Virus record (IMG/VR): IMGVR_UViG_3300048579_000117
Span: 1 to 52,829 of that record
Source of the DNA: a virus
Direction: 5' to 3' (one strand)
Length of the DNA: 52,829 nt
Both the position numbers and the translations under genes were made by a program. Of the stretch, positions 4,189 to 10,086 are shown one piece after another. Numbering within the stretch: position 1 is the first letter of the stretch; each line of letters starts with the position of its first letter. Under the pieces are notes generated by a model that was not told the DNA's origin, ran no database searches, and saw nothing but the letters and a program-made list of their open reading frames with translations.

Positions 4189-4700
4189 TCGCGCGCGCGC
4201 TTCCCTGGCTTCTGCTCGCCGCGCTCGCGCTGGCCGGCCTGCAAACCTACCGCCTCGCAGAAGAGCAGGGCGCACACGCCCGCACGCAACGCGACCACGC
4301 GCAGCAGCTGGGCACGCTGGAGCGCGCTGCCGGCCAAGCTGTCACCGAAGCCCGTGCCGAAGGCGACCGCCGTTTCACTGCCCTGTGGGAGATCCTGAAT
4401 GAAACACAAGCCGACCGCGATCGCGCGCGCGCTGACGCTGCTGGCGCTGCCGATGCTGGTGTCAGCCTGCGCCGGCGTATCGCAGCCCTTACCGCCGGTT
4501 GTCGTGCCGCCGCCCGCGATTCCGCCCCTGCCAGCGGCAGCCCGCCAGCCGACAGCACCGCCGATCTGCTCGCCGACGTGCAGCGCCGGCTTGATGAGGC
4601 TGCGGACGGAATTGCTCGACATGCTGACGAAGCACACATCGCCGGCCGAGCCTGCGAACGCGCATACGACGCGCTGAAGCCTCCGGATGCGCGTCCGTGA
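4185..4700 (+). CDS. Rz: i-spanin (Rz-like)
   Basis: N-terminal TM helix LPWLLLAALALAGL, then a coiled-coil, charged periplasmic region. GTGA-coupled to the upstream gene. Contains an embedded lipoprotein ORF in the +1 frame. Confidence 0.8.
   Translation: MIARALPWLLLAALALAGLQTYRLAEEQGAHARTQRDHAQQLGTLERAAGQAVTEARAEGDRRFTALWEILNETQADRDRARADAAGAADAGVSLRRRIAALTAGCRAAARDSAPASGSPPADSTADLLADVQRRLDEAADGIARHADEAHIAGRACERAYDALKPPDARP
4399..4677 (+). CDS. Rz1: o-spanin (Rz1-like lipoprotein) embedded within Rz
   Basis: Signal peptide ending in the lipobox L-V-S-A-C, followed by a proline-rich mature region (PLPPVVVPPPAIPPLP). Fully nested in the Rz gene in another frame, which is the classic embedded spanin architecture. 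Confidence 0.8.
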   Translation: MKHKPTAIARALTLLALPMLVSACAGVSQPLPPVVVPPPAIPPLPAAARQPTAPPICSPTCSAGLMRLRTELLDMLTKHTSPAEPANAHTTR

Positions 4701-4929
4701 CGCCCTGACGTTCGCGGCCCGGCTCTTCCGGTCCGGCTATCGGTCGGACGAGGCCGCCGCGCTGTTCGCACTGGCGCGCGAGCACTACCGGCTGCTGGCC
4801 AAGATCGCCCGCATCCGGGACGACCGCAACGCCTGGCGCCGACAGTCCGCCGATCACCCGCGCTGCACCTGTGCGTCCTGTCGTCAGTCGGCCGGGCCGG
4901 CATTGGACACCACCACCCACCACGACTGA
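4687..4929 (+). CDS. Hypothetical protein (80 aa)
   Basis: High GC3 ORF overlapping the Rz stop region. Its 3' end overlaps a convergent ORF by 46 nt. Confidence 0.5.
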   Translation: MRVRDALTFAARLFRSGYRSDEAAALFALAREHYRLLAKIARIRDDRNAWRRQSADHPRCTCASCRQSAGPALDTTTHHD

Positions 4930-5207
4930 GCGTATTCCGTCACCACTTGGGCGGCGTCCTCGTGTCGCTCGATGCCGGTAATGACCATCCAGTCGGAGTT
5001 GACCGCGATCACCTCGGCGCCGTAGAGCGGCAGCAGGACGTCGACCCCGTCGTCGCCGATCACCCGCGCAACGCGCACGGTCCGCCGCCGCACCTGGTCG
5101 CGCATATCCTTGATGATCAGCATGCCCGGCATCATCCGCTGGCGGACGTACCACGATCGCGGCATGTGCATGCCGCGGTTGAGTTTGGGATGGACTTTGC
5201 AACGCAT
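4884..5207 (-). CDS. Hypothetical protein (up to 107 aa; alternative starts at 5171 or 5165), first gene of the accessory island
   Basis: Only convincing minus-strand ORF here. Diverges from the AT-rich promoter region 5208-5300. Non-repetitive, balanced amino-acid composition. Confidence 0.55.
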   Translation of the reverse strand: MRCKVHPKLNRGMHMPRSWYVRQRMMPGMLIIKDMRDQVRRRTVRVARVIGDDGVDVLLPLYGAEVIAVNSDWMVITGIERHEDAAQVVTEYAQSWWVVVSNAGPAD

Positions 5208-5264
5208 CGGGAAACTGTATGGATATACAGTTATTGAGGCAAGCGCGCCTGTTACAAATTAGGG

Positions 5265-5300
5265 TTGCAATAAACGAATAATCGTGTATTATTCGATTCA
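5265..5300 (+). promoter_or_regulatory. Sigma70-like promoter (TTGCAA-16 nt-TATTAT) with an overlapping palindromic operator, upstream of the DUF932 operon
   Basis: -35 at 5265-5270 and -10 at 5287-5292 with a 16-nt spacer. AT-rich in a genome of about 66% GC. Palindrome overlaps the spacer and -10. A conserved ATG lies 7 nt after the -10. Confidence 0.5.
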
Positions 5301-5317
5301 TGGACAGCGCGCTGCTG
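5271..5317 (+). repeat. 47-bp promoter-operator repeat, copy 1 (44/47 identical to 7012..7058)
   Basis: taaacgaataatcgtgtattattcgattcatggacagcgcgctgctg. Contains the perfect palindrome GAATAAT-N5-ATTATTC (5276-5294). Confidence 0.9.
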
Positions 5318-5364
5318 TTCATCCGACGCCGGCCGGAAGCTGGCTCTCTGCGGAGATACCTGAA

Positions 5365-6207
5365 ATGCTTGCTACTCGCTTTGGTCGTTCCCATTCGTCT
5401 GCTGTTCGCACCACCCCCCTCAGCAATGAGGAGATCGCCCGCGTGGCGCCGTCGGTGATGGCGGAAGCGGCTCACGCCTCGCGCAGCGACCGTTACACCT
5501 ACATTCCGACCGTCCAAGTGCTGGACGCGCTGCGCCGCGAGGGTTTTGAGCCGTTCGCCGCCTATCAGGGCAATGTCCGCGATGATTCCCGCCGCGAATT
5601 CACGAAACACATGCTGCGCCTGCGGCACGTGCGGGACATCGAGCGTGGCGCTCAGGTCGGCGCTACGGTGAACGAAATCATTCTGTTGAACAGCCACGAT
5701 GGCAGCACGTCTTACCAGATGATGGCCGGCTGCTTCCGCTTCGTCTGCGCGAACGGCATGGTGGTCGGCGACACCTCGCACGATGTGCGGGTGCGTCACA
5801 GCGGCGACGTGGTCAGCAATGTGATCGAAGGCGCCTATGAGGTGCTGGAGCACTTCGATACGGTCACGGAATCCCGCGACCGTATGCAGGCGATCCAGAT
5901 GAGCCGCGAAGAACAGACCCTGTTCGCCCGCAGCGCGCTGATGATCAAGTACGACGACCCGGACGGCGCCCCGATCCGTGCGGAGCAGCTGAACCGCCCG
6001 CGTCGCGTTGAGGACACAGGTGCGGACCTGTGGTCATCGTTCAACCGTGTGCAGGAAGCGGTCGTGCGCGGTGGGCTGCCTGGACAGAGCGCGAGCGGTC
6101 GCCGGATGCGTACCCGGGAAATCAAGGGTATCAGCGAGAACATCCAGGTGAACCGCGCGCTGTGGGCGCTGGCTGAAGGGATGGCCAAGCTCAAGACGCA
6201 GGGCTAA
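5365..6207 (+). CDS. DUF932 (TIGR03299-type phage/plasmid-like) protein
   Basis: Motifs YIPTVQVLDALRREGFEP, ILLNSHDGSTSYQMMAGCFRFVCANGMV and NRVQEAVVRGG are typical of DUF932. GGAGA RBS lies 9 nt before ATG 5365. The track GTG start at 5284 sits inside the operator palindrome and is unlikely. Confidence 0.8.
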   Translation: MLATRFGRSHSSAVRTTPLSNEEIARVAPSVMAEAAHASRSDRYTYIPTVQVLDALRREGFEPFAAYQGNVRDDSRREFTKHMLRLRHVRDIERGAQVGATVNEIILLNSHDGSTSYQMMAGCFRFVCANGMVVGDTSHDVRVRHSGDVVSNVIEGAYEVLEHFDTVTESRDRMQAIQMSREEQTLFARSALMIKYDDPDGAPIRAEQLNRPRRVEDTGADLWSSFNRVQEAVVRGGLPGQSASGRRMRTREIKGISENIQVNRALWALAEGMAKLKTQG

Positions 6208-6213
6208 GAGTAG

Positions 6214-6240
6214 GCGGGCGCGCGTGGCGCGTCCCGCCTT
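6214..6240 (+). terminator. GC-rich hairpin after the DUF932 gene (weak terminator candidate)
   Basis: ggcgggcgcgcgtggcgcgtcccgcc forms a bulged stem of about 11 bp. There is no long T tract. Confidence 0.3.
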
Positions 6241-6307
6241 GCCGGCCTGGCATCGTGCTAACGTTGCACTTTCGCCGGGCGGCGCTCGGCTCTCTGAGGA
6301 GACACCC

Positions 6308-6547
6308 ATGGCAGAAGCGTCAAGCGCGAAGTCGGCCCCCGTGAGAGCGGTTTTGCTCCATGCCTTGGGCGAACACAGCGCTCGAATTCTTTCAGGTGAT
6401 CGGCCGCTGAAGGCGGACGACATCGGCCAGCTAAGCGAGTTTCTCCCGATACCCAATTTGGCCGGACTGCGACAGCGTGTTCAGGATCAAGGCGGCATCA
6501 CGCTGGCCGACTTCGACCAGTGGGTGCTGTCGGGCGGTGTCCCGTGA
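6308..6547 (+). CDS. Hypothetical protein (79 aa)
   Basis: GAGGAGA RBS before ATG 6308. GTGA coupling to the next gene. Confidence 0.6.
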   Translation: MAEASSAKSAPVRAVLLHALGEHSARILSGDRPLKADDIGQLSEFLPIPNLAGLRQRVQDQGGITLADFDQWVLSGGVP

Positions 6548-6795
6548 CCGGGAAGTACTTTGGTTGGCACAAGGCGTGGACCCGTGTGTCGGGCTCACGC
6601 CTTCGGCATTCGACGGGGCTTGAGGTCGATATCCGGCCAAGCGCTGGACACGTGGATGCCGTCGCCACCGAAGACTCGATTCCGGCCTTTCAGGCATCCG
6701 AACAAGCGCGCGGCGTGCCCTTGCATGACCTGGTCGCACGGCTGCAGCGCCTGTGCCGCGAGGCCGTGAAGTGGCACGAAAGGAACCCCGCATGA
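6544..6795 (+). CDS. Hypothetical protein (83 aa)
   Basis: GTG 6544 overlaps the upstream stop (GTGA). The stop overlaps the next start (ATGA at 6792). Confidence 0.55.
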   Translation: MTGKYFGWHKAWTRVSGSRLRHSTGLEVDIRPSAGHVDAVATEDSIPAFQASEQARGVPLHDLVARLQRLCREAVKWHERNPA

Positions 6796-7022
6796 CCGAC
6801 GAACAGTTCGAAGCGCTGGCAGCGCTCACGCGCCTGCATGCGCGGTCTGCAGCGCCCCGCGAAGGCGCGCGCCTGGTGCTGGTCGATGGCGTCACGTTGA
6901 AAGAGGCTGCTGCGCGCGTAGGCGTGCCCCCGCAGGCCGTGAGCAACGTCCTGTCCCGCTGCCGTCGGACGCTGGCGCTTGTGGAAAAAATCACGCAAAG
7001 AGAGGTTGCCTTAAACGAATAA
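6792..7022 (+). CDS. KorA/TrfB-like HTH transcriptional repressor (76 aa)
   Basis: T-D-E-Q-F-E-A...ARLVLVDG...AAARVGVPPQAVSNVLSR parallels RK2 KorA (TESQFQEA...ARGVLVDG...GLTRGAVSQAV). Its stop codon lies inside copy 2 of the palindromic operator. Confidence 0.65.
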   Translation: MTDEQFEALAALTRLHARSAAPREGARLVLVDGVTLKEAAARVGVPPQAVSNVLSRCRRTLALVEKITQREVALNE

Positions 7023-7041
7023 TCGTGTATTATTCAGTTCA
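7006..7041 (+). promoter_or_regulatory. Sigma70-like promoter (TTGCCT-16 nt-TATTAT) with a palindromic operator, upstream of the small membrane-peptide gene
   Basis: Same geometry as the 5265-5300 promoter. A conserved ATG (7041) lies 7 nt after the -10 and opens a 12-codon mini-ORF, MDSALLTDTLRW. Confidence 0.5.
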
Positions 7042-7058
7042 TGGACAGCGCGTTGCTG
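7012..7058 (+). repeat. 47-bp promoter-operator repeat, copy 2
   Basis: taaacgaataatcgtgtattattcagttcatggacagcgcgttgctg. Palindrome GAATAAT-N5-ATTATTC at 7017-7035. Confidence 0.9.
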
Positions 7059-7062
7059 ACCG

Positions 7063-7104
7063 ACACCCTCCGGTGGTGAGTAGCCGGGAAAGACTCGAAA
7101 GGAG
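7063..7104 (+). promoter_or_regulatory. Conserved 5' leader motif, copy A (CTCC anti-SD ... GGAG SD)
   Basis: acaccctccggtggtgagtagccgggaaagactcgaaaggag is repeated with few changes at 7300-7341. CTCC can pair with the downstream GGAG Shine-Dalgarno. Confidence 0.45.
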
Positions 7105-7110
7105 TTCAAC

Positions 7111-7266
7111 GTGGAGAAAACTGTGGACGTCGTAGAGACCGAAGCGAGGATCGCGAAGCTGATGGCGGAAACCGCCAAGATCAACTCCGAAGCGCGGTGG
7201 TACCCGGTAGCGATGGTCACCGCGATGGTTGCAGCGGTGGCTACGGCATTGAAGCTGCTGGGATAA
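7111..7266 (+). CDS. Small membrane peptide (51 aa, C-terminal TM helix), not in the ORF track
   Basis: AAGGAG RBS lies 6 nt before GTG 7111. Translation VEKTVDVVETEARIAKLMAETAKINSEARWYPVAMVTAMVAAVATALKLLG. Followed by a GAAA-loop hairpin. Confidence 0.5.
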   Translation: MEKTVDVVETEARIAKLMAETAKINSEARWYPVAMVTAMVAAVATALKLLG

Positions 7267-7273
7267 GCGACCG

Positions 7274-7297
7274 GGCCGGGGAAACCCGGCCTTTCCT
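7274..7297 (+). terminator. Hairpin ggccggg-GAAA-cccggcc followed by TTT (terminator/attenuator candidate)
   Basis: 7-bp GC stem with a GNRA loop and a short T tract, directly after the 51-aa ORF. Confidence 0.45.
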
Positions 7298-7299
7298 GA

Positions 7300-7341
7300 A
7301 CACCCTCCGGCGGTGCGTAGCCGGCAAAATCTCGAATGGAG
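7300..7341 (+). promoter_or_regulatory. Conserved 5' leader motif, copy B
   Basis: acaccctccggcggtgcgtagccggcaaaatctcgaatggag. Same spacing to its start codon as copy A. Confidence 0.45.
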
Positions 7342-7347
7342 ATCGCT

Positions 7348-7617
7348 ATGAAAACCCTTCCGCAGCAATATCCCGCCCCGAAGATCGCCCGCGCCTGGGC
7401 CGATAGCAGCGAAACCCACATGGCTGTCGCGACAGCCATTCATGCGATCGCCGAGGGCTCGCGCACGCCTGAACTCATCTGGGAAGACCCGACGCCCGCC
7501 GAGTGGGACCACGTCTGCATGGCAGTCGAAAACTATGTCGGCACCGGTGTGTTTCCGCAGGAGGACGACGGCCGCTACCCGTGGGGCTGCGAAACTGTCG
7601 TGCTCGATCACCAGTAA
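7348..7617 (+). CDS. Hypothetical protein (89 aa)
   Basis: GGAG lies 6 nt before ATG 7348, the same spacing as for the 7111 gene. Acidic, Trp-containing, non-repetitive sequence. Confidence 0.6.
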   Translation: MKTLPQQYPAPKIARAWADSSETHMAVATAIHAIAEGSRTPELIWEDPTPAEWDHVCMAVENYVGTGVFPQEDDGRYPWGCETVVLDHQ

Positions 7618-7649
7618 TCCACCAGCAGCCCATCGGGCCGCTCAAGAAC

Positions 7650-8660
7650 ATGTCCAGTCCCCAGTTCGGCAAACGGCCCTGCCGCCCCCGCGATCATGTC
7701 GCGGCAGCAGCCCGTGACTATCCGCAGGCGTGGCGCCAGGCTGACGAGTTCCGTGCCGATCGCGGCCGCGGCCTACCCGACTGGCCTGCCTGGTGCTACC
7801 TGCCGCTGGCGGCGGCATACGCCATCGTGAGCGCCGACCTTCAGGTGGACCGACTGTCCGTCCAGCACGTGGGCGATGTTGCTCGCCTCGGGGCGCTGGC
7901 GGCTTGGCGTGTCACGCAAGGCATTTACCGGTTTGATCCGGCCCTGTACGCCGCCATCGTCGACACACCGGTTTCCGGCGACGTGCCGCACGACGTGCTT
8001 TATCGGCTGCCGGAGTGGTGCGTCTATGTCGAAACGCCCGGCGTGGCGTTGAACGATGGCCGTTTGTTCGGCTTCTTCGCCCACCTTGAATACGACGCCA
8101 ACACCGGACGGCCGGAACTGCGTCTGCTGCTGGACGCCGACACCGCGCTGGTGCCCGTGCCGCTGCACCTCGGGCCGTGGTCGCTGGCCGAATCGATATC
8201 GCGTGCGGTCGACGTGGCCCGCGTGCAGGCGACAGTCGGCGGCGGCATGCCCGACGGCGTCCCCAAGGTTCTGCGGGAGTGGGTCGAGCCGCTGGTTTCC
8301 CTGCTGCTCTATCTGTGCTCCCAGAACGCCGAGATCGGCGACGGGCAGCGCCGCCCTGCGAACCCTGAGCCGAAACGCACGAAATCAGGCTGGCGCCTCT
8401 TTCCGCCCGACAGGCCGACCACCTGGGATGTGGGGGTACGCCTGGGCAGCGCCTTGCGGGCGGCCTACCATGCAACGGAGACAGGGCAGGGCGGGACGCA
8501 TTCGGGCCCGCGTGCCCACATCCGGCGCGCCCACTGGCACGGCTACTGGATCGGGCCGCGAGAGGGTGAGAGACGGTTCGATCTGCGCTGGATGCCGCCG
8601 ATTCCGGTGAACGTCAATGACGTGGCCGATCTGCCGGCGACGGTGCGCCCGATGAAGTGA
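7650..8660 (+). CDS. Hypothetical protein (336 aa) with C-terminal RRAHWHGYWIGPR motif
   Basis: Long ORF with coding GC3 starting at ATG 7650. The track start 7503 adds an Arg/Pro-rich, noncoding-looking extension. Last gene before attP. Confidence 0.7.
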   Translation: MSSPQFGKRPCRPRDHVAAAARDYPQAWRQADEFRADRGRGLPDWPAWCYLPLAAAYAIVSADLQVDRLSVQHVGDVARLGALAAWRVTQGIYRFDPALYAAIVDTPVSGDVPHDVLYRLPEWCVYVETPGVALNDGRLFGFFAHLEYDANTGRPELRLLLDADTALVPVPLHLGPWSLAESISRAVDVARVQATVGGGMPDGVPKVLREWVEPLVSLLLYLCSQNAEIGDGQRRPANPEPKRTKSGWRLFPPDRPTTWDVGVRLGSALRAAYHATETGQGGTHSGPRAHIRRAHWHGYWIGPREGERRFDLRWMPPIPVNVNDVADLPATVRPMK

Positions 8661-8672
8661 TGCAAGGGAGCG

Positions 8673-8689
8673 CGCGACTTTTACGCGAC
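8673..8689 (+). repeat. 17-bp direct repeat CGCGACTTTTACGCGAC, left of the attP core (candidate arm-type Int site)
   Basis: Perfect copy at 8879-8895. Each copy is itself CGCGAC-N5-CGCGAC. Confidence 0.7.
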
Positions 8690-8781
8690 AGCGATGCACG
8701 AAACTGCGCTGTGTTGCACATGGTCGCGTGGCGAGCGCCGGCACATGTGGTTGAATCGAAAGCACTTCCATGCGGTCAGCC

Positions 8782-8829
8782 TGCATGGGGTGCAAGGGGT
8801 CGCGAGTTCGAATCCCGCCGCCCCGACCA
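8782..8829 (+). other. attP core: 3' portion (anticodon arm to CCA) of a tRNA-Pro(GGG) gene
   Basis: tgcatggggtgcaaggggtcgcgagttcgaatcccgccgccccgacca has the anticodon loop with GGG, a GGGGTC variable region, a TTCGAAT T-loop and the acceptor 3' strand CGCCCCG-A-CCA. The matching 5' acceptor strand CGGGGCG is absent upstream, so this is not a functional tRNA. It lies next to int. Confidence 0.75.
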
Positions 8830-8844
8830 TTAAATCAAAGACTT

Positions 8845-8872
8845 AGGCCACTTTCGCGAGTGGCCTTTTTTC
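8845..8872 (+). terminator. Rho-independent terminator (aggccac-loop-gtggcct + T6)
   Basis: 7-bp stem followed by TTTTTT, 16 nt after the tRNA-like CCA end. It is the terminator of the tRNA copy that integration would reconstitute. Confidence 0.75.
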
Positions 8873-8878
8873 TTTCTA

Positions 8879-8895
8879 CGCGACTTTTACGCGAC
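8879..8895 (+). repeat. 17-bp direct repeat CGCGACTTTTACGCGAC, right of the attP core
   Basis: Identical to 8673-8689. Abuts the int stop codon. Confidence 0.7.
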
Positions 8896-10086
8896 TCACG
8901 CCGCGGCAGTTCGCAGGATCGTCAGCGTCGGCGTCGTCCGGTTGGCGGTCGATACCTTATTCGCCTGCGCTATCAGGCCTTCCAGTTCGGCGGCCGAGTA
9001 GTGCGTGGTGACGCTGTCGGACTTGTGGCCCAGCAGCGCCTGACGATCTTCCTTCGGCACGCCGGCTGCGCGCAGCCGGCGCCCGAAGGTGTGCTTCAGG
9101 TCATGTACGCGCAGCTTCTTGAAGCCCTGCCGCGCGGGTTTTCCGAACTCGGCCTGCCAGGCATCGGCAGCCCGGTTGCGGGCGCTGCGCCAGGCGGTGG
9201 CGTTCATGCGGTGCAGCGGTCCACCCTCGTCGCCGTATGGGAACACCCATTCGTCGCACAGGCCACGCTGCCCCTCGATCACGCTACGCGCCACGTCGTT
9301 CAGCACCAGCACCCGGTATTCCCGGTTCTTGACGCCAGCCTGCTCGGACCGCCCGCCGAACTCCGGCGGCACGATGAACACGCTGGTGCCCAGCTCGGGC
9401 ACCTTCACTTCCCAGTCCCAGCGCAGCTTGCACACTTCCTGCTCGCGCGCCCCCGAATTGACGTTGAACAGCGCCATCCGTTCGAGGTAGTCCGGCAACT
9501 CGGCGAACAGCAGGCGCTGTTCATCCCAGTCCATCGGATACGGCTCGCGCGTTCTGCCGCGCTCGCCTTCCATCGTGATCGCCGGCACGACATCGATCCA
9601 GGCGCGCTTATTGGCATCGCGCCAGGTGCGTGCGCACAGATGCAGAATGCGCACGACGCGCTGCAGGGCGATGTTGATGGTGCGCGGTGACGATGGCTTC
9701 TTCGTCTTGCCGCTGGCCATCTTGCCGCCCTCGCGCATCCACTGGCGGAAGGGCTCCAGTGCGTCGTCGTCGATGTGCGTCACCGGCAGTTCGCCGATGA
9801 AAGGGTCCAACTGCTCCAGGTACGTGGCGGTGAGCCCGATTGACGGCATGTCCTGATTCTCCAGCAGGTAGCGCGTCGCGGCGTCGCGCCAGGTCTTCAC
9901 CTGCCGCACGCCGAAAAGCTGCTGCTGCCGGCGCTGGTCCAGCAGGTGAATCAGGATCTGCTCGGCTTCTTCGAGCGAACCAGTTCCAGTGCTCTGGTAA
10001 ATCCGTTCTCCTTTGAAGACCTTGTTGATGTGCCAGATGCCGTCCCTTTGCGTGAGGCCCGACATCCGCTTTCCCGTTCTCGCCAT
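8896..10086 (-). CDS. int: Tyrosine integrase
   Basis: 396 aa. C-terminal catalytic signature LRVHDLKHTFGRRL ... LLGHKSDSVTTHYS (R..HxxR..H..Y). AGGAGC RBS before ATG 10086. Adjacent to the tRNA-derived attP. Confidence 0.9.
   Translation of the reverse strand: MARTGKRMSGLTQRDGIWHINKVFKGERIYQSTGTGSLEEAEQILIHLLDQRRQQQLFGVRQVKTWRDAATRYLLENQDMPSIGLTATYLEQLDPFIGELPVTHIDDDALEPFRQWMREGGKMASGKTKKPSSPRTINIALQRVVRILHLCARTWRDANKRAWIDVVPAITMEGERGRTREPYPMDWDEQRLLFAELPDYLERMALFNVNSGAREQEVCKLRWDWEVKVPELGTSVFIVPPEFGGRSEQAGVKNREYRVLVLNDVARSVIEGQRGLCDEWVFPYGDEGGPLHRMNATAWRSARNRAADAWQAEFGKPARQGFKKLRVHDLKHTFGRRLRAAGVPKEDRQALLGHKSDSVTTHYSAAELEGLIAQANKVSTANRTTPTLTILRTAAA

Follow-up and report, generated by a model that had tools for sequence, protein, structure and literature searches.

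The window analysed here is IMG/VR virus record IMGVR_UViG_3300048579_000117 over its whole length of 52,829 nucleotides. Between a lysis cassette and a putative phage attachment site (attP), it carries an accessory island of two operons, the first ending in a gene for a 76-amino-acid (aa) helix-turn-helix (HTH) regulator related to Aca4 and the second in a gene for a 336-aa protein of the AcrVA2/FinQ family, each operon being preceded by one copy of a repeated promoter with a predicted operator. We consider it likely that these two operons form an anti-defence locus, carried by a temperate tailed phage and kept under negative feedback by Aca4. The features that bear on this reading are listed below.

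5265-5292, plus strand: promoter P1 (-35 TTGCAA at 5265-5270, 16-nt spacer, -10 TATTAT at 5287-5292), in the first copy of a 55-nt repeat
5270-5289, no strand: predicted operator O1, Aca4-type ATAAACG-AATAAT-CGTGTAT (TAAAC-N8-GTGTA), overlapped by GAATAAT-N5-ATTATTC at 5276-5294
5365-6207, plus strand: DUF932 protein of 280 aa in cargo slot 1 (PF06067, E 3e-52; phrog_12094, E 8e-104)
6308-6547, plus strand: 79-aa open reading frame (ORF), from the ORF list
6544-6795, plus strand: 83-aa ORF directly upstream of the aca4-like gene, its start overlapping the preceding stop and its stop overlapping the next start (ATGA)
6792-7022, plus strand: aca4-like gene for the predicted 76-aa HTH repressor, last gene of operon 1, with its stop TAA (7020-7022) inside O2
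7006-7033, plus strand: promoter P2 (-35 TTGCCT, 16 nt, -10 TATTAT), in the second copy of the 55-nt repeat
7011-7030, no strand: predicted operator O2, TTAAACG-AATAAT-CGTGTAT, inside P2
7111-7266, plus strand: 51-aa peptide with a hydrophobic C-terminal tail (phrog_6330, E 1e-8)
7348-7617, plus strand: 89-aa ORF, from the ORF list
7650-8660, plus strand: AcrVA2/FinQ-family protein of 336 aa containing RRAHWHGYW, last gene of operon 2 (phrog_6160, E 2e-61)

Promoters and repeats of the island

The eight ORFs that an earlier note on this DNA had listed (those above and a divergent 107-aa gene) were present as described, with starts refined to 5365, 6308, 6544, 6792, 7111, 7348 and 7650. A repeat search of the window identified a 55-nt direct repeat at 5263-5317 and 7004-7058 (91% identical), longer than the 47-bp element noted before, whose core at 5271-5317 and 7012-7058 has three mismatched positions and thus the 44/47 identity originally given. 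The perfect palindrome that had been placed over the spacer and -10 of each copy, GAATAAT-N5-ATTATTC (GAATAATCGTGTATTATTC), occurs in both copies and nowhere else: with up to two mismatches permitted, the 52.8-kb window contains exactly two such dyads (5276 and 7017), with a chance expectation of 0 in 100 shuffles. Likewise, a consensus scan of positions 4500-9000 retrieved two sigma-70-like promoters, where 0.7 were expected by chance, and these are the two repeat copies, so that the promoters proposed earlier (16-nt spacer, TATTAT) are the only promoter-like sites in that segment. The ATG reported 7 nt past each -10 was found at 5300 and 7041. Having a small HTH regulator of its own and one promoter-operator in duplicate, the island is the self-contained accessory module that had been described.

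The 76-aa regulator belongs to the Aca4 family

By sequence, the 76-aa HTH protein clearly belongs to the Aca4 family and is KorA-like only remotely. In BLASTP comparisons with Aca4 sequences taken from the supplement of PMC9410906, it was 48% identical over 67 aa to the reference Aca4 WP_071533911.1 (E 2e-19) and 61% identical to the Aca4-family protein WP_079381596.1 (E 1e-22). It was also 59% identical to a protein of S. stutzeri KOS6 listed in that study as an Acr-associated Aca4 homologue, and is slightly longer at the C-terminus than Aca4 (~65-72 aa). The reference Aca4 represses its own promoter in a reporter assay (PMC9410906).

The best Pfam match of the protein was KORA (PF16509), with a score below the cut-off (25.3 vs 26.7 bits; E 1.8e-5; residues 1-56). 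Its AlphaFold model (pLDDT 86.5) had KorA (5cm3_A) as the top Foldseek match (30% identity, rmsd 2.5 Å, 57 columns, E 0.035), and a profile search of the PDB placed ArdK (E 0.003) and KorA (E 0.2-0.5) on top; the E-values of these fold and profile matches are all weak. The alignments to KorA end at about KorA residue 57-62, leaving unaligned its C-terminal part, which we take to be the dimerisation/KorB-interaction domain. The KorA operator, which we assume to be GTTTAGCTAAAC, had no match in the window at up to two mismatches. The name KorA/TrfB-like repressor used in the earlier note is therefore borne out by the best fold and Pfam matches, the latter sub-threshold, but Aca4 is far closer; "KorA-type" pointed the right way without naming the closest family, since Aca4 is itself described as a KorA-like HTH (PMC9410906).

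The regulator had no match in deposited phages and two weak matches in plasmids. Its closest copy in a named genome was in a Methyloversatilis metagenome-assembled genome (MAG), with remoter homologues in genomes of Azoarcus, Burkholderiaceae, Polaromonas and the Pseudomonas group. Its 83-aa partner is conserved in eight of the related loci, to which we refer by L numbers (L002-L004, L007, L017, L018, L021 and L027). In betaproteobacterial loci, the Aca4-like gene invariably follows a gene for an 83-85-aa protein that has ARGVPLHDLVARLQRLCREAVKWHERNPA as its conserved C-terminus; the stop of the one overlaps the start of the other, and this protein might act as a co-regulator or be cargo that all these loci keep. 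The 83-aa protein had no family or meaningful PDB match, and its equivalence with a 144-aa protein whose gene precedes that of Aca4 in Pseudomonas was considered and dismissed, as the two have no similarity.

The operator is more likely an Aca4-type dyad

Each repeat copy contains two overlapping dyads, with ATA[A/C]ACG-N6-CGTGTAT lying six bases to the left of GAATAAT-N5-ATTATTC. The published Aca4 operator, tacaccc(N4)gggtgca, lies between the -35 and -10 and equals TACAC-N8-GTGTA (PMC9410906). The sequence TAAACGAATAATCGTGTA, found at 5271-5288 and 7012-7029, has one mismatch to that pattern and accounts for the sole such sites in the window, and O1 and O2 match the published operator in half-sites, spacing and promoter position. 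We compared 18 distinct promoter variants from relatives whose regulators are 97% to 47% identical to the 76-aa protein. In the close lineage, GAATAAT-N5-ATTATTC is perfect and the Aca4-type dyad has 5-6 of 7 complementary pairs. In L013, L024 (S. stutzeri KOS6) and L026 (Azoarcus), the Aca4-type dyad retains 6-7 of 7 pairs around a freely variable 6-nt centre, and GAATAAT-N5-ATTATTC falls to 2-4 of 7. The Aca4-type dyad is perfect in O1 of both L013 and L018, and the right arm of GAATAAT-N5-ATTATTC largely coincides with the -10 hexamer, which is conserved on its own account.

From the conservation of the dyads among relatives, the match to the published Aca4 operator and the uniqueness of the sites in the window, we therefore assigned the operators to 5270-5289 and 7011-7030: judged by sequence comparison, the operator is more likely ATA[A/C]ACG-N6-CGTGTAT than GAATAAT-N5-ATTATTC. 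The palindrome that the earlier note had proposed as operator thus gives way to the dyad that persists in distant relatives, although the perfect form of the palindrome in this lineage leaves room for it as a second site beside that dyad or in its stead. Because either dyad covers the spacer and the -10, the expected block of RNA polymerase is the same for both.

Cargo is exchanged on a conserved scaffold

BLASTN comparison with sibling phage contigs delimited three conserved blocks. The first (4500-5359) runs from the end of the lysis cassette through the 107-aa gene to P/O1 with its leader, as far as the Shine-Dalgarno sequence; the second (6688-7040) takes in aca4 and P/O2 together with the 3' portion of the 83-aa gene; and the third (8660-8831) is the att region. 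The cargo between these blocks differs from phage to phage. Slot 1 contains the DUF932 gene in the window and L018, a gene for an LPD29 protein in L004, L007 and L017, and one for a RadC-like JAB protein in L003 (E 3.7e-43). In the window, as in L007, L018 and L020, an AcrVA2-like gene closes slot 2; three uncharacterised proteins occupy the slot instead in L003, L004 and L021, and in L002 the slot ends in a 146-aa protein whose first 41 residues match AcrIF25 (E 4.5e-13) and which shares 55% identity with the protein encoded ahead of Aca4 in S. stutzeri KOS6. In the minimal form of L013 and L016, P/O1-aca4-P/O2-cargo, P/O1 is fused directly to aca4, an arrangement that puts aca4 directly under its own operator and is the clearest sign of autoregulation.

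The earlier note had further suggested that the island was imported from a plasmid or an integrative and conjugative element (ICE). Affinity of the cargo to such elements is real: DUF932 homologues 57-60% identical occur in ICEs and plasmids, and homologues of the 336-aa protein were found on 641 plasmids, 567 of them conjugative. Recent import is not supported, as the GC content of the island (~0.64, with 0.67-0.70 nearby) gave no clear compositional sign of it, and the scaffold is a conserved cargo-swapping hotspot in related phages. No match to the DNA of the whole island was found among deposited phages, and the exact 22-mer of the operator was absent from a one-genome-per-species set. On plasmids of Ralstonia and Polaromonas, the neighbours of the closest AcrVA2-like genes are hypothetical only and were uninformative.

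The 144-146-aa family to which the L002 protein belongs (L002 6857-7297, L024 7567-8001, L022 7570-8004) occurs in Aca4 loci of the Pseudomonas group and of the sibling phage; it shares ~41 N-terminal residues with AcrIF25 (PDB 8jdh), and its C-terminal part is unrelated to AcrIF25. According to a 2026 preprint, AcrIF25 has a ribbon-helix-helix (RHH) domain that its Acr activity does not require and that may serve as an inbuilt module for regulation. A 262-aa slot-2 protein of L004 (7893-8681) has a C-terminal RHH domain (NikA-like, E 1e-6), recalling the RHH-type Aca14 (2026). In L026, an Azoarcus MAG, an Aca2/YdiL-like gene (7519-7986; PF08965, E 3.8e-16) lies directly upstream of the Aca4-like gene, so that two Aca families share one operon behind an Aca4-type promoter-operator. 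The element in L007 is a prophage at the edge of the host surE-pcm-nlpD-rpoS region.

Cargo proteins

The 336-aa protein is, by sequence, a member of the AcrVA2/FinQ family, divergent over the matched region. A phmmer search aligned its residues 76-324 with residues 70-320 of AcrVA2 (PDB 7ci1_A; E 7.3e-21), leaving the N-terminal 75 residues unaligned, and RRAHWHGYW is the C-terminal conserved motif of the family. The protein had no match in our local copy of Pfam, which apparently does not include PF26125, and proteins 93-95% identical to it carry a precomputed PF26125 AcrVA2-like match. In the alignment, its W86, D96, H290, R292 and H295 correspond to AcrVA2 W79, D89, H286, R288 and H291, whose mutation weakens or abolishes activity (bioRxiv 10.1101/2022.11.29.518452). 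According to the same study, AcrVA2 inhibits Cas12a through translation-dependent loss of Cas12a mRNA, and the family, with ~1,800 homologues on mobile elements mostly of hosts without Cas12a, includes the plasmid fertility inhibitor FinQ, which inhibits F-plasmid conjugation and lowers tra mRNA. AcrVA2 has been called the sole anti-CRISPR shown to act on the biogenesis of a Cas protein (2026 preprint). The statement of the earlier note that none of the island's proteins has a known function must accordingly be narrowed, as it does not hold for this protein or for the HTH regulator, whose Aca4 family has been tested experimentally.

The DUF932 assignment made in the earlier note is firm (PF06067, E 3e-52): the match is full-length, covering profile positions 1-227 of 227 with 178 bits against a cut-off of 23. 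The protein has at least 4541 homologues, and a structural model of it (pLDDT 77.7) had no PDB fold match with E below 0.8. The one hint at function encountered in the literature concerns Variovorax, where loss of an ICE-borne DUF932 gene was reported to be selected under phage attack. Among the small proteins, no family or PDB match was found for the 79-aa protein and no family or meaningful PDB match for the 89-aa protein, and homologues of the 51-aa peptide (ORFs of 47-54 aa) lie at the corresponding place in L002, L007, L017 and L018. None of the cargo proteins matched a PADLOC defence model.

Leader and intergenic elements

Elements predicted at the RNA level lie in both leaders and between cargo genes, and are as follows.

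5300-5322, plus strand: predicted mRNA 5' hairpin AUGGACAGC-GCGCU-GCUGUUCAU, starting ~1 nt past the predicted transcription start
5327-5360, plus strand: element D3, copy a, a GC hairpin followed by a UCUC-UGCG-GAGA hairpin over the Shine-Dalgarno sequence, before the DUF932 gene
6273-6306, plus strand: element D3, copy b, before the 79-aa ORF
7063-7107, plus strand: element D2, copy a, before the 51-aa ORF
7273-7292, plus strand: GC-rich hairpin downstream of the 51-aa gene, with UUUCC behind it; scored under the terminator-scan threshold
7300-7344, plus strand: element D2, copy b, before the 89-aa ORF

The conserved ATG downstream of each promoter had been read in the earlier note as the start of a conserved peptide (MDSALL). 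As a leaderless peptide this candidate was rejected, as it has 52 aa in one copy and 12 in the other, is frameshifted in L018 and has no ATG in O2 of L003 and L004. What is conserved is not an ORF; the conserved leader sequence is predicted to form a hairpin at the mRNA 5' end, for which L018 shows a compensatory A-U to G-C change and O2 of L004 a different hairpin in the same place. Folding energies of the whole leaders were not significantly below those of shuffled controls (z -0.1 to -1.5). The hairpin at 7273-7292 is possibly a partial terminator or attenuator of read-through into the 89-aa and AcrVA2-like genes.

Together with a third type, D4, found in L002 (6270-6316) and in Pseudomonas Aca4 loci, D2 and D3 are elements of ~35-45 nt that consist of a GC-rich hairpin and then a small hairpin over the Shine-Dalgarno sequence, precede unrelated cargo and show modest covariation. 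Within the island, no Rfam family matched at gathering thresholds or at E up to 1. Elements of the D2/D3/D4 type were also seen in the leaders of L022 and L024 and in the viral loci L033-L072, likewise with no Rfam family match.

When viral contigs were scanned, 26 contained the core of D2 and 15 that of D4, and an Aca4-like protein is encoded at 6 of 40 such loci. In viral contigs, the elements follow at least eight different operator palindromes, among them the Aca4-type and one identical to the published Aca10 motif, in a stereotyped layout of -35, operator, -10, 6-7 nt, CATGG at the predicted start, variable 5' hairpin, element, Shine-Dalgarno hairpin and ATG. Since the elements stand behind many different operators and so few of the loci encode an Aca4-like protein, the idea that D2 and D4 are Aca4-specific RNA operators, formed by analogy with Aca2, was dropped. 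The elements look like a leader design common to such operons, which may explain why, in a recent study, Aca10 and Aca12 did not bind the RNA motifs predicted for them. We entertain, with considerable doubt, the idea that they constitute a portable module of RNA-level control independent of the regulator. If so, they would be read by a host factor or act in cis, with no reading by an Aca protein, and could serve as a beacon for anti-defence operons whatever their regulator, in which case DUF932, RadC-like and LPD29 proteins, which fill a single slot downstream of them, would be counter-defence effectors.

A model of the island and its alternatives

In the model that we favour, P1 would drive the genes for the DUF932, 79-aa, 83-aa and Aca4-family HTH proteins, and P2 those for the 51-aa tail-anchored peptide, the 89-aa protein and the AcrVA2/FinQ-family protein, with TAAAC-N8-GTGTA filling the -35/-10 spacer of each promoter and entering the predicted -10. 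On phage entry or prophage induction, with no Aca4 present, both promoters would fire and the cargo would be made. As Aca4 accumulated, its dimer would bind both operators and block RNA polymerase, and output would drop to a low, self-limited level that would hold in the lysogen too. By analogy with AcrVA2, the AcrVA2-like protein might bind the nascent N-terminus of a specific protein of the host or of a rival element, with loss of the corresponding mRNA. The earlier note had allowed for a defence or anti-defence role; on present comparisons, anti-defence is the best reading.

Several points weigh against this model. Both operators of the window have an imperfect left half-site, TAAAC for TACAC. 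The aca4-like gene lies upstream of the AcrVA2-like gene and in the other operon, and the classic aca4 lies downstream of acr. There is no validated inhibitor among the cargo of the window, and neither the AcrVA2-family gene, which ends the operon adjacent to aca4, nor the gene with an AcrIF25-like N-terminus in sibling L002 encodes one. DUF932 has neither a known activity nor a structural analogue, and its loss under phage attack in Variovorax would not obviously fit an anti-defence role here. Moreover, since the majority of AcrVA2-family members come from hosts that lack Cas12a and the target of FinQ is a plasmid, what we call anti-defence may be conflict between mobile elements. The family memberships, the geometry and conservation of the operator and the swapping of cargo on a fixed scaffold come directly from the comparisons above; repression, its timing and the anti-defence activity of each cargo protein are inferred from them.

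In a rather unlikely alternative, the island serves the lysogen as a conversion or exclusion module against other mobile elements and the Aca4 loop steadies prophage expression; the FinQ-like protein could then inhibit transfer of conjugative plasmids and DUF932 act on resident ICEs. The activity of FinQ on F conjugation and tra mRNA, the scarcity of Cas12a among hosts of the family and the altered outcome of phage attack caused by mutations of ICE-borne DUF932 in Variovorax are all consistent with it, as is the location of the island in the moron position beside attP, reading outward. The cargo nevertheless matches no PADLOC model, acr loci have this regulator family and this promoter layout, and the cargo of the siblings (LPD29, RadC and the AcrIF25-like N-terminus) points to counter-defence. 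RadC is linked to anti-restriction regions, and published work predicts an anti-defence role for LPD29.

The interpretation closest to the earlier note, a KorA-type plasmid module recently imported from a plasmid or ICE, with GAATAAT-N5-ATTATTC as operator and constitutive expression as a lysogen moron, appears improbable. It would account for the perfection of that dyad in both copies and its uniqueness in the window, for KORA, ArdK and KorA as the best Pfam, PDB sequence and fold matches, and for how common DUF932 proteins and AcrVA2/FinQ members are on ICEs and conjugative plasmids. However, the left arm of the dyad lies in the variable part of the operator and the right arm is mostly -10, and in L013, L024 and L026 the dyad retains just 2-4 of 7 pairs; the regulator matches Aca4 at E 2e-19 and KorA at E 0.2-0.5, over ~57 KorA residues, with the KorA operator absent from the window and two weak matches in plasmids; and GC content is not anomalous in an island whose scaffold is conserved in several related phages. 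It is most improbable that the repeats are recombination scars or homology handles of cassette exchange without regulatory function. The boundaries of cargo exchange do coincide exactly with the ends of the conserved leader segments, but each copy is a full promoter plus dyad in the geometry of the tested Aca4 promoter, the arms of the dyad are kept and its spacer varies down to 47% regulator identity, and the layout recurs behind many different operators.

Relation to known systems

The type of system is already known, as acr-aca operons, the Aca4 operator and the AcrVA2/FinQ family have all been described. The closest system is the acr-aca4 locus of Pseudomonas (WP_071533911.1 with AcrIF11, PAGI-5; PMC9410906), with which the island shares a homologous regulator (48-61%), similar half-sites (TACAC/GTGTA), spacing and -35/-10 placement, and what would be the same logic, an autorepressed strong promoter driving counter-defence genes. 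The Pseudomonas locus has two inverted repeats at one promoter, whereas the island has two promoters with one operator each, and its aca4 ends the first operon, upstream of the second. Its cargo (DUF932 and an AcrVA2-family protein) also differs from that of Pseudomonas aca4 (AcrIF11, AcrIF12, AcrIC6-8, AcrIE9), and its host is a betaproteobacterium, whereas PMC9410906 found Aca4 in Pseudomonas only.

AcrVA2 (Moraxella bovoculi prophage, 7ci1) and FinQ (IncI/F-like plasmids) are homologous to the 336-aa protein over residues 76-324 and are likewise carried by mobile elements, and the conserved W, D and H-x-R...H needed by AcrVA2 for mRNA down-regulation are all present in it. KorA (RK2/RP4) and ArdK (R388) share with the regulator the class of HTH fold and the role of a small repressor at several promoters of one element. 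In R388, ardC is presumably among the promoters repressed by ArdK. ArdK represses five R388 promoters in all; both KorA and ArdK are global repressors of backbone and establishment genes in plasmids, with another operator, whereas the island's regulator is phage-borne and below the KORA threshold.

The arrangement of a single Aca with its operator repeated before an adjacent operon is also found in a preprint of July 2026 that surveys Aca systems (bioRxiv 10.64898/2026.07.27.740549). It attributes an operator before the neighbouring operon to most Aca families, gives Aca4 among its examples, places LPD29 in aca4 operons (as in L004, L007 and L017) and describes RNA motifs that can occupy intergenic positions in operons of this kind. 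Its main text names LPD29 as the sole cargo of aca4 operons, mentions neither AcrVA2 nor DUF932 and reports no RNA motif for Aca4.

In the literature compared, we found no account of Aca4 from hosts other than Pseudomonas, of a predicted Aca4 regulon that includes DUF932 and an AcrVA2-family gene, or of clean slot-wise exchange of cargo among sibling phages. In that literature, this is the first link found between Aca4 and the AcrVA2/FinQ family, and it places a large family, DUF932 (at least 4,500 homologues in ICEs, plasmids and jumbo phages), under a regulator of anti-CRISPR loci. Candidate counter-defence genes are those for DUF932, the 79-, 83-, 51- and 89-aa ORFs and, in relatives, ORFs of 127, 85, 265, 266 and 262 aa, and a divergent AcrVA2 member with such a tidy genetic context offers an entry point for new targets.

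Flanking features

The island is bordered by the following features.

4884-5207, minus strand: divergent 107-aa gene (ORF), conserved in L004 and L007 and part of the conserved scaffold
5213-5232, no strand: LexA/SOS-box-like palindrome AACTGTAT-GGAT-ATACAGTT, 6-25 nt upstream of the start codon of the 107-aa gene
8673-8895, no strand: putative attP region, with 17-nt direct repeats (8673-8689 and 8879-8895) around a tRNA/tmRNA 3' fragment (~8786-8835) and a terminator-like hairpin (8845-8866)
8896-10086, minus strand: integrase of 396 aa (ORF; labelled from reading of the sequence), with a near-identical ORF beside the same att region in L004

The lysis cassette that the earlier note had placed upstream was confirmed by Phage_lysozyme, BubE and DUF2514 on the identical contig L001, and contains an embedded lipoprotein ORF (4399-4677). 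The 107-aa protein had a weak match to phrog_5560 only and none in Pfam, the PDB or PADLOC. By chance, 0.41 copies of CTGT-N8-ACAG would be expected in the window; the palindrome upstream of its gene is the only one, is shared by L004 and L007, and resembles the LexA consensus. The 107-aa gene is thus probably under its own control, outside the Aca4 regulon, and may be an SOS-controlled gene, possibly for an antirepressor, beside the island.

The position of attP downstream of the island, likewise proposed earlier, is consistent with the tRNA/tmRNA 3' fragment, the direct repeats and the adjoining integrase gene. ARAGORN found no complete tRNA at attP; Rfam gave a weak match to the tmRNA 3' end at 8786-8829 (E 0.014), and the fragment ends in CCA. 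The att region is conserved in L002 and L004. The 17-nt direct repeats are exact copies of CGCGACTTTTACGCGAC and are possibly arm-type sites of the integrase.

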